Shown here piece after piece: positions 2,805 through 63,981 of a stretch of 64,000 nt of DNA. This DNA is from an uncultured bacterium (GTDB lineage: Bacteria; Patescibacteriota; Minisyncoccia; UBA6257; GWB1-50-10), in assembly GCA_963768835.1 (NCBI GenBank), contig CAVYJB010000001.1, positions 88,420-152,419 of the forward strand, given 5' to 3'. Each line of letters opens with the position of its first letter. The stretch's first letter is position 1. Position numbers and translations under genes: made by a program. The notes below the pieces were generated by a model. It was not told the origin of the DNA and ran no database searches. It was given only the letters and a program-made list of their open reading frames with translations.

Positions 2805-3821
2805 ATGGGGGGTAAGATACCATCGCTCTATATCCTTGTTGGCATTATCGTTGTTGTGGGGCTTTTCGTAGGCGGTCTGTTCGCTTTTCGCTCCGTCATC
2901 CTTGGCTTGCCTGCCGAAAACACGATTATCCCAACCAACTTCCTTGGCAACCGGAACACGGGTTCGGTAGGGAGCCACGTATCGGAAGCTCCGGGCTTTG
3001 CGGTACGGCGCAAGAACAAGAACACTGTTGTCGTGGAATGGACAAATCTGCCGGCCGGCACCGCGCGCATCGATGCGTATCGCGTCCGACAAACCGCGAA
3101 TGGGACTGAGCTTATCTATTGGGAGAGTATCCCGTTGGGACCTGACGCAGGAAGCGGTTCCAAAGAGTTCTCGATCGGACCGAATGATAACCCCGACGCT
3201 TATCTTTATTACTTCCAGACCGCGGGGGCAAACGGAACCATTCTCTGGACCTCCTCAAGCACACAGATTACAACTTCCTCACTCTTTGGAACTCCCGCGG
3301 GGCCGGAAGGGAACCCGAACCAGAATAACAACCCGAGCAATGGCAATAACCCTCCGTCAAACCCTCAGAACCCGACGCCTTCAACTCCCGCACCCACCTC
3401 AACCCCTCCCGTTTCAAGCCCGACTTCCACGGCCTCCGAACCCACCTCTACCGTGGTAATTCCCCCTCCGGAGACGCCGCCCCCAGTCGTGTACTACTAT
3501 ACCCCACAGGGTCAGCTCTCAAGTACCGCATCTTCTGGCCCGCCCACGGCGACTTTCTATGTTTACTTCCTCAACGGGAACATCCAAATCAATTGGCAGA
3601 ACCTTCCGGCTGGTACGGACAGTCTTGTGGTAGACCGCTCGGCTTCAGGCGATGGTCCTTGGACAGAGCTCATGGAACAAACGAATCCGGCGGACCCCGG
3701 GACCCTTGGTGTCCTTGATCAGACCGTCCAAGATCCTTACTACTACCAAATGGAAGCGCGGGGCGCCGATAACGTTATTGCAACCTATGGCCCTGTCTTC
3801 CTGCCTGGGCTTACTCAGTAA
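2805..3821 (+). CDS. membrane-anchored Pro/Thr/Ser-rich protein with two FN3-like repeats
   Basis: N-terminal TM; repeats VVVEWTNLPAGTARIDAYRV and IQINWQNLPAGTDSLVVDRS separated by low-complexity P/T/S linker; start taken at internal Met (MGGKIPSLYIL). Confidence 0.5.
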   Translation: MGGKIPSLYILVGIIVVVGLFVGGLFAFRSVILGLPAENTIIPTNFLGNRNTGSVGSHVSEAPGFAVRRKNKNTVVVEWTNLPAGTARIDAYRVRQTANGTELIYWESIPLGPDAGSGSKEFSIGPNDNPDAYLYYFQTAGANGTILWTSSSTQITTSSLFGTPAGPEGNPNQNNNPSNGNNPPSNPQNPTPSTPAPTSTPPVSSPTSTASEPTSTVVIPPPETPPPVVYYYTPQGQLSSTASSGPPTATFYVYFLNGNIQINWQNLPAGTDSLVVDRSASGDGPWTELMEQTNPADPGTLGVLDQTVQDPYYYQMEARGADNVIATYGPVFLPGLTQ

Positions 3822-26851: not shown

Positions 26852-26924
26852 GGCGGGGTCACGAGGATTCGAACCTCGATTAGCGGTTTTGGAGACCGCC
26901 GTCCTACCATTGAACGATAACCCC
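26852..26924 (-). tRNA. tRNA-Trp(CCA)
   Basis: Acceptor GGGGTTA/TGACCCC, anticodon stem GCGGT/ACCGC with loop CTCCAAA, T-arm GGTTCGAATCC; CCA not encoded. Confidence 0.85.
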
Positions 26925-26950
26925 TCTCGACGTCTCCAGCATACGCAAAA

Positions 26951-26980
26951 AGCCCCGGTATTTCAACCGGGGTCTTTTGT
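26951..26980 (-). terminator. rho-independent terminator after rpmG
   Basis: CCCCGGTTGAAATACCGGGG hairpin then CTTTTTGCG on minus strand. Confidence 0.5.
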
Positions 26981-26984
26981 ACGT

Positions 26985-27155
26985 TACTTCTTCGCTTCTT
27001 TATGGATGGTGTGTTTCCGGCACCAATTACAGAACTTCTTGAATTCAATCTTCCGCTCCACCAACTTCTTGTTCTTGTGGGTGGTGTAATTCACGTGCTT
27101 ACAAACGGCGCACCGGAGCCGGATCAATTTCTCGCTATATTTGCCTTGTGCCATA
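26985..27155 (-). CDS. rpmG: 50S ribosomal protein L33
   Basis: 56-aa ORF MAQGKYSEKLIRLRCAVCKHVNYTTHKNKKLVERKIEFKKFCNWCRKHTIHKEAKK with CxxC...CxxC zinc ribbon; not in ORF track (under 60 aa). Confidence 0.7.
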
Positions 27156-27215
27156 CGGAGGTAAGAATACCGAATTACGGTTCACGAATCAAGTGCGGCA
27201 ACAACCGAAACCTTG

Positions 27216-27287
27216 AGCCGATGGTCGGGATTGAACCGACGACCTACTCCTTACCATGGAGTTGCTCTACCACTGAGCTACATCGGC
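27216..27287 (-). tRNA. tRNA-Thr(GGU)
   Basis: Acceptor GCCGATG/CATCGGC, D-arm GCTCAGTGGTAGAGC, anticodon stem ACTCC/GGAGT loop ATGGTAA, T-arm GGTTCAATCC. Confidence 0.8.
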
Positions 27288-27385
27288 TTCGCAGAAAGCA
27301 TACACAAAAGATGGAGCTTTGGCAATTAAAAATGTAGAGGCGGCCGCGTAACGCGAACCGCCTCTTGTAGCCCCTAGGGCTCGTT

Positions 27386-27901
27386 TTACTTCCACTGCCA
27401 CTTCCCGCCGCGCGCCTTTTGCAATTGGAGGTCTACGCCCTCCTCTGCTCCGGCTATCAGCGTGGCGATCATCGTCTGCTCTTCCGAAGCTCTGCCGTCA
27501 GCTGAGCGAACAACTAACTCTGCGGGAGCACCGTCCGAATCCCCACTCGTATTGGACATGACCGCAAATCCCTTGGTTATCAGGAGTTCTTTTGAGAAAA
27601 GGTTTGGCTCTTTCGGGACCGCTCCTTCCTCCAAAACTTTCTCGGAACCTTTTGCTCTCTGGTCCAACCGGTCGATCAGTTCCTTTTCAAAGTCGTTCGG
27701 ATCCGGTACGTCGGCTCTCCCGATATGCTGGGTTCTTCCGGTTCTTGGAGACAGGGGTTGCCTTGCCAGAACCCGATCCTGGTCCTCGAGGTCCCTCACG
27801 ATATCAGGGTCCTGGTTGCCCGGGTTAAACGCATTGAAAAGGTTTACTGGGACCACCCGGCCGGACGCTGAGCCCGACACATTGTGTTTTTTCCGTGACA
27901 T
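27386..27901 (-). CDS. hypothetical protein
   Basis: 171-aa acidic ORF between two tRNA-Thr genes; no recognised domain. Confidence 0.35.
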   Translation of the reverse strand: MSRKKHNVSGSASGRVVPVNLFNAFNPGNQDPDIVRDLEDQDRVLARQPLSPRTGRTQHIGRADVPDPNDFEKELIDRLDQRAKGSEKVLEEGAVPKEPNLFSKELLITKGFAVMSNTSGDSDGAPAELVVRSADGRASEEQTMIATLIAGAEEGVDLQLQKARGGKWQWK

Positions 27902-28007
27902 ACACTACTCCTACGGTTGGTGGGACTTATGTTGTTGTTTAGGTACAGCACTGCAAACGGATGTTAACATAATAACTTAATTATATGGAATCGTCAAGTA
28001 ACCTTAG

Positions 28008-28080
28008 AGCCAGCCCCGGGACTCGAACCCGGAACCTTTGCTTTACAAAAGCATTGCTCTACCAATTGAGCTAGGCTGGC
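28008..28080 (-). tRNA. tRNA-Thr(UGU)
   Basis: Acceptor GCCAGCC/GGCTGGC, D-arm GCTCAATTGGTAGAGC, anticodon loop TTTGTAA, T-arm GGTTCGAGTCC. Confidence 0.8.
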
Positions 28081-28279
28081 CGTCCCATTCCAAGGTAGCA
28101 AATAGTAGATGCAAAATCAAAGAGCGGCTGGCATTAGGGTACACACTGCGGAGATCGGTTTTTGATTTGCGCCGGATTGGACGGTGTTCGAACCATTATG
28201 CAAGGAATTGAGGTGGGGGTCAATTAAAAAAGCCCCCAGTGTTTGCTGAGGGCATGGAAATCTGCATTCCATCATGGCT

Positions 28280-28618
28280 TCAAAAGTTTCCTTTTCTTTT
28301 CCCTTCGTTTCGAGCCTGTTCAATCGCCTGTTCGAAGAGTTCCTTTTGTGCTGGCGTGAGATCCTCAAGAAGTTTGGCAGCTTCCTCACCCTTGGGAGGA
28401 CTGCTCACTGTTATGAAGTGTGGGTGCATGTATGCCCCATCGGAGAACTTGAGAACTTCAATAAATCTTGGTATCTTATTCTGTTTATCAATTGCGCTTG
28501 CAAAGAGTGCTTGTTGATAGGTCTCGAAGTAGGCATCGCGGACAGAATCGCCGTCGCGCCCCACAATTTCGACGACCCAGAGCTTCGTCATTTCGATAAA
28601 GGTTGTCCCCAGCTTCAT
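28280..28618 (-). CDS. hypothetical protein (113 aa)
   Basis: ATG at 28618 with AAGGAG RBS 7 nt upstream; longer listed ORF runs through tRNA-Tyr and is rejected. Confidence 0.45.
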   Translation of the reverse strand: MKLGTTFIEMTKLWVVEIVGRDGDSVRDAYFETYQQALFASAIDKQNKIPRFIEVLKFSDGAYMHPHFITVSSPPKGEEAAKLLEDLTPAQKELFEQAIEQARNEGKRKGNF

Positions 28619-28709
28619 CGCTTTTCTCCTTTGAGGTGTGAGTGTGGTTATGTGAAGACTTCTTGTCTGAAAAACAAAATAGCACTCATGTGCTATTTCG
28701 TCAATACCT

Positions 28710-28795
28710 TGGTGCGCCGGGTAGGATTCGAACCTACGTAGCCCGAAGGCGCTTGATTTACAGTCAAGTGCAATTGACCACTCTGCCACCGGCGC
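28710..28795 (-). tRNA. tRNA-Tyr(GUA)
   Basis: Acceptor GCGCCGG/CCGGCGC, anticodon stem CTTGA/TCAAG loop CTGTAAA, long variable arm, T-arm GGTTCGAATCC, CCA encoded. Confidence 0.85.
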
Positions 28796-61129: not shown

Positions 61130-61590
61130 GCCTGAAATGTAACATGTAACAAATGTAACACGACGTGCAAGGTTCGGGGAACGTCGCTTTTTCGGGAGAT
61201 TACCGACTAAGGCACATAGATCAAGGATTCTTTGATGGTCGAAGTGTAACATGGCAAATGCAACACCCGGAGGACTGTTTCCGCCTGAGCGAAAGTTAAC
61301 AAAGTTTACACAGGAAGAGACGTTAACTTTTATGCGTTAACTTTCTGAATCTTCGATGAAAATGGCACAAATGGCACTCCACGGTGTGACTTTATTGTGT
61401 GCCATTCTGGTGTGCCAAAGAGCCGCAAACCGGACAAAGCGGACACAAAAGGACGCAGTCCGGACGTGTCCCATTTGAACAGGGACGTGTCTCATTCCCT
61501 AAAATGGATGCCTGTAAAATAAGGCTTTTCTATGCAAATGAGACAAATGAGACACTTTTAGGGGGTGTTCCGATCGTGTCTCATTTTTCA
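61130..61590. repeat. noncoding region with at least nine different short direct-repeat doublets and inverted repeats
   Basis: GTAACA x3; GGCAAATGCAACA; GTTAACAAAGTTTACA; CGTTAACTTT x2; ATGGCAC x2; GTGTGCCA x2; CGGACA x3; GGACGTGTC x2; AATGAGACA x2; 11-bp inverted repeat AAATGAGACAC/GTGTCTCATTT next to RT stop. Confidence 0.6.
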
Positions 61591-62550
61591 GCCTACCAAT
61601 CCAATCCGTTTTCTGATGGCATAGGTGTTCCCGTGTTGCAGGAGCCCTCGGTAGGAGGATGCGGTCTCCGGTTTCGGGCGTCTCCCCATGCGCGTGAGCA
61701 CTCTTCGCTTCGTCGCGGTGCGAAGCACCCGATGATCCGGAAAGTGCACCCAGCCCAGGAAATCGACGCCGGAGGCGAGCGTGAGGATGGAAATCTTGTC
61801 GGGGTGAAGATCGAGCTTGAGCCGTTCGAAGAGGAATGCTCGGATCCTGGGGAGGATCTGCTCGAGTCGCGCGCGATCGTCCGAGAAAATCACGAAGTCG
61901 TCGGCGTAGCGGATGTAGTGGTGGGCGCGGAGGCGGTGCTTCGCGAATCGGTCGAACTCATTCATGTACACGTTCACGAAGAGCTGGGAGGTGAGATTGC
62001 CGAGGGGCAGGCCGATGCCAGGCCGCGTCGAGGAGAAGCTGCTGACAACGGCGCGGGCAAGCCATACAGTTCCTTCGCCCAGGTCCCGCGCAAGAATTCC
62101 GAGAAGCGCTTCGTGGTCAACGCTCGCGAAGAATTTCCGGATGTCGCACTTCAGAATCCAGCAGGTCTTCGTGTTGTTCTTGCTGGCCTGCCAACCGAAG
62201 CGCCGGAAGCGATCCAGAGCTTTATGTGTCCCCTTTCCGACCCGGCACGAAAAGGAATCGGCGATGAACTTCCTGTCAAAATGGGGGTAGAGCACGCGGT
62301 AAACGGCATGATGAAGGAGGCGGTCGCGGACGGTGGCTTTATGGATGTTCCGCGGCTTCGGATCGGAAATATTGAACGCTTGATAGCCGCCGTGCCGGTA
62401 GGTACGATGGAGAAGGTCGCGATGCAGAGAGAAGATGTGATCCACCAGGCGCAGGGAGAACTCCGCGACATCCGGTTTGTATCGCTTCCCGGGCAGGAAT
62501 TCTTGCCACGCCTGAAGTAAGTTCTCGACACTCGCGATTTTTTCAAACAT
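61588..62550 (-). CDS. diversity-generating retroelement reverse transcriptase
   Basis: RT motifs incl. YADDFVIF and DGR-type LGNLTSQ (I/LGxxxSQ); 320 aa from ATG 62550; cognate TR/VR pair present. Confidence 0.8.
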   Translation of the reverse strand: MFEKIASVENLLQAWQEFLPGKRYKPDVAEFSLRLVDHIFSLHRDLLHRTYRHGGYQAFNISDPKPRNIHKATVRDRLLHHAVYRVLYPHFDRKFIADSFSCRVGKGTHKALDRFRRFGWQASKNNTKTCWILKCDIRKFFASVDHEALLGILARDLGEGTVWLARAVVSSFSSTRPGIGLPLGNLTSQLFVNVYMNEFDRFAKHRLRAHHYIRYADDFVIFSDDRARLEQILPRIRAFLFERLKLDLHPDKISILTLASGVDFLGWVHFPDHRVLRTATKRRVLTRMGRRPKPETASSYRGLLQHGNTYAIRKRIGLVG

Positions 62551-62572
62551 ATGGATACGGAGCAACCCGGTA

Positions 62573-62583
62573 CCCCCCCCCCC
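62573..62583. repeat. C11 homopolymer between divergent RT and avd starts
   Basis: Eleven consecutive C on plus strand (G11 on RT coding strand), 23 nt upstream of RT ATG 62550 and 12 nt before avd TTG 62595; lies inside the longer listed RT ORF (encodes GGGG). Confidence 0.9.
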
Positions 62584-62594
62584 GACGGAACCAA

Positions 62595-62942
62595 TTGCCG
62601 GTAGTTCAAAAATTCGTCTCGGCATACAAGCTCTGGCACGAAATCGTTCCGGACTTTCCTAAAACTTCGCGCTATACCTTGGGCTCGAGAATCGACTCCC
62701 TTTTTCTGGAGACGATCGAACTCATTTTCTCCGCCGCCTCCGTCACCCCCGCGGAGAGGTTCGCAAGAGTGGGAATCGCGGCAGCGAAGCTGGATGCCTT
62801 GAAATTCCTTCTTCAAATTTCCTGGGAGATAAAAGCGCTGGATACCAAGAAATACATCCTGCTCTCCGAAAAACTCGACGAGGCGGGGAGGATGCTCGGC
62901 GGATGGTTACGGCAACTCTCGGAGAAAACTTCCCCGCGGTAG
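62595..62942 (+). CDS. avd: Avd-like four-helix-bundle accessory protein of DGR
   Basis: 115 aa; pattern KLWHEIVPDFPKTSRYTLGSRIDSLFLETIEL...DEAGRMLGGWLRQL resembles Avd/TIGR02436 four-helix bundle; TTG start as listed; opposite strand to RT and TR. Confidence 0.6.
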   Translation: MPVVQKFVSAYKLWHEIVPDFPKTSRYTLGSRIDSLFLETIELIFSAASVTPAERFARVGIAAAKLDALKFLLQISWEIKALDTKKYILLSEKLDEAGRMLGGWLRQLSEKTSPR

Positions 62943-62961
62943 CGCGGGGAAGGAAGCGGTA

Positions 62962-63076
62962 AGCTTCGAGAGAGCACGCAGTTGCCGTCGTTCCACCTGT
63001 TGTCATCCAGGTCGTTCGCATTCAGGTTCCACTCGCGGTCGTTCGAGTTCCAGTTCACGTTCACCGCAACCACGCG
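62962..63076 (-). repeat. DGR template repeat (TR), 115 bp
   Basis: 115-bp repeat of 63318-63432; all 22 mismatches occur where this copy has A on the minus (RT-sense) strand; translates as Asn (AAC)-rich pseudo-ORF VAVNVNWNSNDREWNLNANDLDDNRWNDGNCVLSRS. Confidence 0.85.
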
Positions 63077-63254
63077 TTCTATGCGCGACGCGCCGCCCAT
63101 GCCACCGCTCCTCGAATACTCTTGGAGCTGTATCGTATTCCGGGTCTAACCCGATAGCGCATCGCACCAGCTGACCTCTTTTATTTGTTGAAATCTCCCC
63201 GCCGGAGCCGTGACCGCAGCGATGTCGAGAAACTTCCTCTTTATTGTAACAAAA

Positions 63255-63279
63255 GACCCCGTTCATACCGAACGGGGTC
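63255..63279 (-). terminator. GC-rich hairpin plus T-tract 37 nt downstream of VR/target stop
   Basis: GACCCCGTTC-atacc-GAACGGGGTC 10-bp stem followed by TTTTGTT on minus strand; position matches DGR VR-proximal stem-loop and a rho-independent terminator. Confidence 0.6.
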
Positions 63280-63315
63280 AACACCGAGAACCCAAGAATC
63301 CGAGAATCCGAGAGG

Positions 63316-63981
63316 TCAGCTGCGAGAGAGCACGCAGCGGCCGCCGAACCACCTGTAGTCATCCAGGCCGAACGCATCCAGGCCCCACCCGCGGCCGTCC
63401 GAGGACCAGAGCACGCGCACCGCAACCACGCGCCCTTCCAACTGCACATAGAAGACGTTCGCGTAGCCGTTCATGAGGAGCGTGCCTTCTTCGCCCTTCG
63501 GTTGCTTCGTGAGCAGATCGCGGATGAGGGCCGCGAACTCTCCGGGCGTGAAGGGCTCCGGGTGTCCGAGTTCCGTGAGGATCTCGGAGTCGAGCATATA
63601 CTTCGTGAGCTTCGTCTGCGTGAGCGTGCCCTGGAACGCTTCGATGGTCTCGGGAATCAGGGGGAGCACCCACTGCTCGAAGTTGCTCCCGAGCCAGAGC
63701 TTCACAGGACCCTTCTTCCCGAAGAACGATTCCTTCGTGAAGGACTCAGTCGCTATCGCGATGCCGTCCGTGATGAGCTTCAGGGATTTCAGGGCGAGCT
63801 TCTTTGCGCCGTTCGTGCCAGCGACGATGAGTTTCGCCACTTCCTTCGCGAGACCTGTACCTGTCTTCATTCTTTCGAACATCCGTTCCTCGTTCCCCCC
63901 GAGCTTCACGACTTCCTTGTAGACTTCCGTGAAGAACTCTGCCCCGAAGAGCATGCCGCCAACCAACTTTGATTTCTGCAT
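63316..63981 (-). CDS. DGR target protein (221 aa) with C-terminal variable region
   Basis: ATG 63981 with GGAGGTG RBS; no signal peptide or TM; C-terminus ...AVRVLWSSDGRGWGLDAFGLDDYRWFGGRCVLSRS encoded by VR. Confidence 0.75.
   Translation of the reverse strand: MQKSKLVGGMLFGAEFFTEVYKEVVKLGGNEERMFERMKTGTGLAKEVAKLIVAGTNGAKKLALKSLKLITDGIAIATESFTKESFFGKKGPVKLWLGSNFEQWVLPLIPETIEAFQGTLTQTKLTKYMLDSEILTELGHPEPFTPGEFAALIRDLLTKQPKGEEGTLLMNGYANVFYVQLEGRVVAVRVLWSSDGRGWGLDAFGLDDYRWFGGRCVLSRS
63318..63432 (-). repeat. DGR variable repeat (VR), 115 bp, at 3' end of target gene
   Basis: 93/115 identical to TR; differences only at TR adenine positions; begins at target stop codon. Confidence 0.85.

Follow-up and report, generated by a model that had tools for sequence, protein, structure and literature searches.

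A complete diversity-generating retroelement (DGR) lies near the end of a 64-kb window of contig CAVYJB010000001.1, from an uncultured bacterium of the Patescibacteriota; the window is the whole stretch of DNA analysed here. The target gene with its variable repeat (VR), the template repeat (TR) and the reverse transcriptase (RT) are all on the minus strand, and the only Avd-like open reading frame (ORF) is on the plus strand. The element is best read as an ordinary DGR of the candidate phyla radiation (CPR), of the published type B3, in which an inverted avd is tolerated because the cassette would run as separate transcription units rather than as one avd-TR-RT operon, a reading to which a probability of roughly 0.7 is given. 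In the proposed scheme the target gene would end in a hairpin terminator. The TR would be made as its own non-coding RNA of ~317 nt, with an extended -10 promoter, a structured leader, the TR itself, and a GC hairpin with a U-run lying on the avd stop codon. This hairpin would serve as the Avd-binding stem-loop, by analogy with the Bordetella phage DGR RNA, an A-rich leader strand would pair with the TR 3' flank in the manner of a template:primer duplex, and a 12-bp leader helix ending just upstream of the TR would act like the phage element named cPRT Stop. Finally, avd and RT would be expressed divergently from a very short gap holding only two ribosome-binding sites and a repeat. All coordinates refer to the whole window, and relatives are RT-matching loci from genome contigs, with one genome per species. 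The features of the element are as follows.

63316..63981, minus strand: DGR target gene, 221 aa, an ORF whose C-terminal ~40 codons are the VR
63311..63432, minus strand: VR, 80% identity to the TR
63255..63279, minus strand: GC hairpin and T-run after the VR, putative target-gene terminator and/or VR-side inverted repeat
63243..63251, minus strand: predicted extended -10 promoter of the TR RNA, TGTTACAAT, conserved at the aligned site
63200..63221, minus strand: leader hairpin H1, CGCTGCGGTC / GGCTCCGGCG, an RNAalifold helix with compensatory changes
63079..63186, minus strand: structured leader core, covariance model R1
62955..63078, minus strand (5' end ~63078): TR, from repeat comparison with the VR
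62954..62960, minus strand: TR 3' flank ACCGCUU, by complementarity the predicted partner of leader strand AAGAGGU
62921..62952, minus strand: 10-bp GC hairpin with tetraloop followed by UUUUCUCC, terminator-like, with the avd stop codon in its loop
62595..62942, plus strand: avd, 115 aa, TTG start, convergent with the TR and divergent from the RT
62573..62583, C11 on the plus strand, read as G11 on the RT-sense strand: simple-sequence repeat between avd and RT, 11 nt before the avd start codon
61588..62550, minus strand: DGR RT, 320 aa from ATG 62550, with an RVT_1 match and a homologue in the PDB

Layout and distribution of the element

The original prediction, made from the letters of this DNA, had placed RT, TR, VR and target on the minus strand, with an Avd-like ORF at 62595-62942 of the plus strand lying antisense between TR and RT, and its TTG start (62595) head-to-head with the RT ATG (62550) across 44 nt. 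ORF, repeat and domain analysis bore out each of these placements, and the gap was measured as 62551-62594. It had also called the architecture unusual and proposed a comparison with layouts in DGR surveys; on this point it was not supported. The order and orientation found here, TR 63078-62955 (-), avd 62595-62942 (+) and RT 62550-61588 (-), are those of architecture B3 in the survey that Wu and colleagues published in 2018 (Nucleic Acids Res 46:11, PMC5758913), where B3 is written TR-(avd)-RT, with parentheses for the reverse strand, and makes up 90% of the CPR DGRs surveyed.

More than 560 RT relatives were found, and the best 80 (59-70% RT identity) were used for comparison. Almost all of these are labelled as CPR/Patescibacteria metagenome-assembled genomes (MAGs) or as an unclassified 'bacterium'. 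The avd gene is inverted directly upstream of the RT in 74/74 loci having more than ~100 nt of sequence upstream of the RT, that is, in every informative relative. In the 52 loci where TR and VR were called by adenine-specific mismatches, the TR is on the RT strand and tail to tail with avd, its median distance to the avd stop codon being 8 nt (12 nt in the window). CPR DGRs thus normally carry avd inverted, as had already been published; the layout is a stable trait of a large clade, of which the window element is a further member. The same layout is kept in relatives on viral contigs (L081-L087) down to 49% RT identity. Three more distant viral contigs (L088-L090, RT 35-37% identity) carry avd upstream of the RT on the same strand in the classical avd-TR-RT order, with ~290 nt between avd and RT, room for a TR and spacer, and with no match to the leader model R1 described below. 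Judging from their sequences, L088-L090 bracket where the arrangement of inverted avd plus leader arose.

The TR/VR repeat spans 122 nt at 80% identity, and 22 of its 24 mismatches fall at TR adenines. Within the variable part, whose variable adenines run from 63078 to 62982, every mismatch is at a TR adenine. The last ~25 nt of the TR, which resemble an initiation of mutagenic homing (IMH*) sequence, differ from the VR at two positions, one a TR adenine and the other a T-to-G change. The VR is the sole TR match in the window and is situated, as expected of a DGR target, at the 3' end of the target ORF (63981..63316), with an IMH-like end and a downstream GC hairpin (63279-63255); a hairpin with a T-run after the VR is also seen in the alignment of relatives. 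Because the VR carries 22 adenine-site differences from the TR, the element has been active. The target protein (221 aa), whose variable region would be expected in a C-type lectin or Ig fold, returned no Pfam or NCBIfam match. Between the VR and stop codon and the VR-side hairpin, at 63280-63315 (-), are three to four tandem copies of the short motifs (C/T)TCTTGG / GGATTCTCGG, and the consensus of the relatives between the VR end and this hairpin reads 'ccTTgG..ccTTgG.cctTTg'. They may have a part in target recognition on the VR side, or be part of the terminator region.

The RT ORF extends over 61588..62625 (-), and the ATG at 62550 agrees with the family. The protein matches Pfam RVT_1 (E 1.1e-23), and among solved structures it comes closest to Bordetella phage bRT (8ub7_A, E 2.7e-43), with group II intron RTs far behind (1e-19). 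The translation contains YADD and LGNLTSQ, the latter an instance of the [I/L]GxxxSQ motif that marks DGR RTs. The RT is placed in the DGR clade by this similarity to BPP-1 bRT and by motifs. In many relatives the RT starts ~7 codons farther upstream (MKIQLSH-KFE...), and translation of the window RT may likewise begin elsewhere than at the annotated ATG. An in-frame TTG at 62563-62565 precedes this ATG by 5 codons and follows the G11 run by 7 nt; as a possible alternative start (TTG 62565) it would reduce the avd/RT gap to 29 nt. The longer ORF, which starts at 62625, reads through the G-run, and its start is not conserved. A 373-aa plus-strand ORF (61399-62520) lies wholly antisense to the RT and is presumed to be no gene but the shadow ORF of a coding region rich in GC.

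A probable separate transcription unit for the TR

Upstream of the TR, the window holds a -10 hexamer, TACAAT (63248->63243), within TGTTACAAT. At the aligned site an extended -10 (TGnTAnnnT) is present in 34/52 relatives and TAnnnT in 52/52, compared with 1% of random windows. Promoter-like matches peak ~230 nt upstream of the TR in relatives, and the distance in the window is ~150-170 nt. The TR RNA is predicted to start near 63236 and to run on the minus strand from ~63236 to ~62920, a length of ~317 nt.

At the other end of this predicted RNA, a hairpin (62952-62929) followed by UUUUCUCC stands right after the TR on the TR-sense strand, with the avd stop codon in its loop. Given that stem lengths vary and alignment-based RNAalifold was unsuited, terminal hairpins were counted per locus with random-window and opposite-strand controls. 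A hairpin and T-run follow the TR in 41/52 relatives (79%) on the TR-sense strand and in 0/52 on the avd-sense strand, against 1.25% of random windows. The stems differ from locus to locus with pairing retained. The hairpin shifts between loci with respect to the avd stop codon, some loci having this codon within the loop and others having it ahead of the hairpin. The distance from hairpin to TR is nearly fixed, which ties the hairpin to the TR and not to the Avd protein. From its sequence, the hairpin has the character of a terminator-like end of the TR RNA. It also stands 3' of the TR, where an Avd-binding stem-loop would be expected, and by analogy with the phage RNA is probably that stem-loop.

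The segment between promoter and TR is a conserved structured RNA. From the full alignment of 49 leader sequences, RNAalifold predicted 40 pairs, 33 of them with compensatory double changes; hairpin H1 corresponds to columns 47-56/79-88 of this leader alignment, A3. In the 110-nt leader core, 97.2% of cells are paired and 20/23 pairs show double changes, a result matched by 0/500 shuffles, and pairing drops to 30-55% in slid controls. In the window the core is made up of an A-rich primer-like strand (63186-63168), the 12-bp helix H3 (63167-63156 with 63094-63083) and the hairpins H4 (63152-63149/63145-63142) and H5 (63128-63121/63114-63107), and the 3' strand of H3 stops a few nt short of the TR's first variable adenines, the place expected of a Stop helix. 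The covariance model built from this core, R1, has its sole match in the window at 63186-63079 (95.8 bits, E 8.8e-18). Among relatives R1 matches once per locus, on the RT-sense strand just upstream of the TR, including in 20 loci outside model building, and has no further match in 642 kb; one locus with an aberrant long leader (L054) gives a partial match only. No Rfam family fits the region, the only hit being a weak anti-hemB match (E 0.17) on the VR-side hairpin.

An A-rich block of the leader (typically AAAAAUGAAGA), 7 nt 5' of H3, shows complementarity, with a constant register, to the ~9 nt that precede the terminal hairpin (UCUUCAUUU). Compensatory variants of this duplex include GAAGC/GCUUC, UACAG/CUGUA, UACGA/UCGUA, GAAACA/UGUUUC and GGAGGGU/AUCCUUC. 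Cognate pairs exceeded non-cognate pairs (p=1.8e-4) in an ungapped-run test, which was kept given that a fixed-register alignment is too ambiguous in A/U-rich sequence. A comparison of the TR end with the whole leader by RNAduplex, cognate against non-cognate and a weak test, gave no cognate signal. The predicted ~317-nt RNA of the window folds alone into the same helices, and its minimum free energy fold pairs the leader strand with the TR 3' flank.

Most relatives have a further leader hairpin, H2 (A3 columns 125-197; e.g. L015:~3290-3330), whose loop repeats the H1 loop motif (CGGUUACGGCU-like). H2 is missing from the window and from L001, L008, L013, L052, L060 and L063, and is partial in L039 and L044, so that long and short leader forms coexist.

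Several points weigh against separate transcription units. The ends of the RNA are all predicted, and the hairpin might do no more than bind protein, with much of the transcription reading through it. The U-run overlaps codons of the lysine/glutamate-rich tail of Avd, and its conservation could in part reflect coding constraint. In the window itself the duplex of leader and TR flank (AAGAGGU/ACCGCUU) is weak, with 6 bp and an A.G mismatch, and H2 is absent. The positive control for RNAduplex reached only -1.7 kcal/mol, indicating low power. A sigma-70 consensus scan of the window returned no promoter in or near the 44-nt gap, and positional scans of 68 relatives gave modest peaks, a -10-like hexamer ~20 nt upstream of the G-run for RT in 12-13 and one overlapping the RT start codon for avd in 16. 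Finally, putative cPRT-Stop duplexes with sequence downstream of the TR have been described for many DGRs, CPR included (Handa et al., bioRxiv 10.1101/2023.10.23.563531), which would imply a functional antisense-avd RNA.

This last point leads to the strongest rival, in which TR and RT are co-transcribed, the hairpin only binds Avd, antisense avd serves as the spacer (Sp), and the RT is translated from the same transcript. It draws on the DGR of Bordetella phage BPP-1, where cDNA synthesis needs 20 nt upstream of the TR and the 140-nt Sp downstream (bioRxiv 10.1101/2023.10.23.563531). Within that Sp, Sp3-33 is the Avd-binding stem-loop, Sp47-56 is the primer strand pairing with the TR 3' end, and Sp59-70, two nt past the primer strand, pairs just upstream of the TR as the cPRT Stop; further RT-binding elements are also held there, so that all such elements are within 140 nt 3' of the TR. 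The same work predicted Avd-binding stem-loops just 3' of the TR in 207/278 Avd-containing DGRs, together with up- and downstream cPRT-Stop duplexes, with CPR among the taxa. In the window, UUGCCG/CGAGAG after the hairpin can pair with CGGCAA/CUCUCG of the TR, as read from the sequence, and the failure to find a strong RT promoter also favours co-transcription.

The avd gene itself shows no sign of acting as such a spacer. Across 70 aligned genes its synonymous-codon entropy is ~0.8-1.0 save for scattered lower codons, and the sole sustained drop is in the last ~7 codons, overlapping the hairpin and U-run. The first 120 nt of antisense avd have no cognate-specific complementarity to the TR 3' end or to the segment upstream of the TR (RNAduplex, low power), and there is no sign of a conserved RNA signal inside antisense avd in these alignments. 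The U-run follows the hairpin in 79% of loci and on the TR-sense strand only. Moreover, a covarying primer-like strand and a Stop-like helix are already present 5' of the TR, outside any 3' spacer, so that the element would not depend on an RNA antisense to avd. Co-transcription of TR and RT is accordingly considered unlikely, though it is the alternative that fares best. The original prediction had correctly seen that avd-TR-RT co-transcription is inapplicable to this locus, avd being divergent from RT. It had then offered a choice between a TR-RT transcript reading through avd in antisense and back-to-back promoters within 44 bp; this choice largely falls away, since the TR has a conserved predicted promoter and a terminator-like hairpin to itself. 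The 44-nt gap would leave too little room for two promoters.

The leader could alternatively be outside the DGR RNA mechanism, as a regulatory 5' untranslated region, a riboswitch-like element or an independent small RNA between VR and TR. The conserved loop motif shared by H1 and H2 (GGUUACGGCU-like) would fit a ligand or protein site, and H2 is dispensable in the window and several relatives. Such a role is improbable given that the leader occurs once per DGR, always abutting the TR on the TR strand, that the 3' strand of its helix ends a few nt from the first variable adenines, that covariation links its A-block to the TR 3' flank, and that no Rfam family matches it.

Avd is a conserved protein encoded in inverted orientation

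The plus-strand ORF matches Pfam bAvd (PF22296) over positions 4-107 of 107 with E 9.6e-15 and 55.4 bits against a gathering score of 40, and matches NCBIfam DivGenRetAVD over its full length (E 3.1e-19, 69.2 bits, under the 80-bit equivalog cutoff). With a profile of 21 family members, the two best PDB matches were both BPP-1 Avd, 4dwl_A (E 0.029) and 8ub7_B (E 0.15). A member of this family would be expected to form a pentameric four-helix-bundle barrel that binds the RT and the stem-loop 3' of the TR, and a stem-loop stands at that place in the window. Across 74 MAGs, each assembled independently, avd is full-length, inverted at the same position and 32-63% identical in amino acids. The 21-sequence alignment contains seven invariant residues, and TTG is the commonest avd start codon among relatives (27/41). 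The protein being conserved and its synonymous sites saturated, purifying selection on the Avd protein is indicated. The exact Avd sequence has no record in the public assemblies searched.

A hidden accessory gene on the minus strand, which together with a plus-strand ORF unexpressed or unlike Avd had been named as the finding that would count against the inverted avd, was ruled out by Pfam and by a family Avd hidden Markov model run over all window frames. Three minus-strand ORFs across the region have no Pfam match, and among all stop-to-stop frames of the 64 kb the family model has a single match, in the plus frame 62376-62939 (E 9.7e-49). It is most improbable that the ORF stems from an assembly inversion, or is what remains of an Avd that is decaying or has lost its function, in an element that is dead or works without Avd: the sub-cutoff DivGenRetAVD score, the TTG start and the lack of a strong promoter found would suit a remnant, but the bAvd score above gathering, the full-length inverted ORF in 74 MAGs, the purifying selection seen in the seven invariant residues and saturated synonymous sites, the prevalence of TTG among relatives and the adenine-site differences of an element that has been active all speak against it.

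A simple-sequence repeat in the avd/RT gap

In relatives the gap contains, in turn, an avd Shine-Dalgarno-like motif, the repeat tract, an RT Shine-Dalgarno-like motif and the RT start codon. As it holds only ribosome-binding sites and the repeat, the avd and RT promoters would lie inside each other's 5' coding regions. A simple-sequence repeat is present in 73/75 loci, and in 65/75 it is an RT-sense G-run of at least 7, mostly 9-10 long, sitting 9 nt (interquartile range 8-11) from the avd start codon. The gap accounts for 65 of the 70 G-runs of at least 7 in 584 kb, where a single C-run of that length occurs, and the C11 at 62573-62583 is the only G/C run of at least 8 in the 64-kb window. 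Seven loci are without a G-run of at least 6, and five of these have a dinucleotide microsatellite at the same spot ((GT)9, (GT)10, (CT)9, (CT)11 and (GA)7 in the gaps of L002, L031, L054, L055 and L060). The property kept here thus seems, from these tracts, to be a simple-sequence repeat and not one particular sequence. Two elements with flanks 98.7-99.3% identical differ in the tract, G11 in one and G8 in the other. In the viral-contig relatives that share the inverted avd, the gap measures 0-30 nt and lacks a tract, which shows that the layout can do without one.

Two other origins of the G-run were considered and rejected. It does not code for poly-Pro or poly-Gly, as its length cannot be divided by three and the alignment of both proteins, from residue 1 onward, begins past the tract, and it is not an assembly artefact, being site- and strand-specific across many independent assemblies. 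It is hypothesized that the tract, through slipped-strand length variation or a non-B DNA structure, could act on the divergent avd and RT start regions, and the gap repeat may be phase-variable.

Other features of the window

Just downstream of the RT stop codon, at 61135-61586, eight copies of AAATGNNNCA occur on both strands within 450 bp. They include AAATGTAACA twice and AAATGAGACA three times, with an inverted pair at 61542-61555/61576-61589. In total the window has 11 copies of AAATGNNNCA, compared with ~6 expected by chance in 64 kb. The arrangement looks like iterons or an array of protein-binding sites. The array is missing downstream of the RT in all 80 relatives and is therefore not part of the DGR. 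Five minus-strand tRNA genes (Trp, Thr x3, Tyr) are found at 26852-28795 and 14605-14679, four of them clustered within 2 kb.

Comparison with known systems

CPR are among the richest carriers of DGRs, yet the mechanistic models all derive from one phage element with a different gene order. In itself the inverted avd changes nothing, since it is what published CPR DGRs normally show; more is gained from the way the TR unit is built and from the repeat slot. A defined predicted RNA of ~317 nt is a concrete substrate for asking whether cis-primed reverse transcription survives in permuted elements, and a gap repeat that switches expression, if true, would mean population-level on/off control of targeted hypermutation. 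A more far-reaching proposal joins the two: a permuted DGR RNA, with a leader of ~110-230 nt 5' of the TR and an end at the Avd hairpin, would free the TR-RT interval, and the repeat slot in the gap, filled by G9-11 in the majority of loci and by (GT)n, (CT)n or (GA)n elsewhere, could bring Avd and RT under phase-variable control by strand slippage. It is advanced tentatively, with the balance tipped somewhat against it.

With CPR B3 DGRs the window element shares the order and orientation of VR, TR, inverted avd and RT and the single target gene, and in layout there is no difference. It departs from the clade in its GC content, 55% in the window, which is high for a CPR genome, against roughly 30-55% in matched leader segments, and in having the short form of the leader without H2. 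In the accessible part of Wu et al. 2018, promoters, homopolymers and a structured leader are not mentioned. Within the literature examined, which did not cover Paul et al. 2017, no description of the leader RNA or of the gap repeat was found; the layout itself is known.

Contingency loci offer a second comparison. Examples are the poly-C tracts of Bordetella fim promoters, the TA repeats that separate the divergent hifA/hifB promoters in Haemophilus influenzae, and the poly-G tracts of Neisseria porA/opc. The gap repeat resembles these in its make-up (homopolymer or dinucleotide), in its place within a short regulatory interval that separates divergent genes, and in that near-identical elements differ in its length. 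It differs in lying between two ribosome-binding sites and not clearly between a -35 and a -10, and in being conserved across a very deep clade.

A third comparison is with the BPP-1 DGR (mtd-avd-TR-Sp-brt; PDB 8ub7-8ube, 4dwl), with which the window element has in common a homologous RT, Avd and adenine-specific mutagenesis. Both have a stem-loop of 7-11 bp immediately 3' of the TR and a short duplex at the TR 3' end beside a helix of ~12 bp (~11-13 bp being expected in a BPP-1-type RNA), one strand of which is immediately upstream of the TR; these parts are probably equivalent in function. Unlike in the phage, avd of the window is on the opposite strand and the TR-RT interval is without a BPP-1-type non-coding spacer, only the hairpin and U-run being conserved 3' of the TR, and the TR unit has a predicted promoter of its own and, past the hairpin, a U-run. 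The strands that resemble primer and Stop, 3' of the TR in the phage, are 5' of it here. Their order of primer-like strand, short linker and Stop-like strand matches that of the phage RNA, and by this analogy the RNA of the window and its relatives would be a circular permutation of the phage form.

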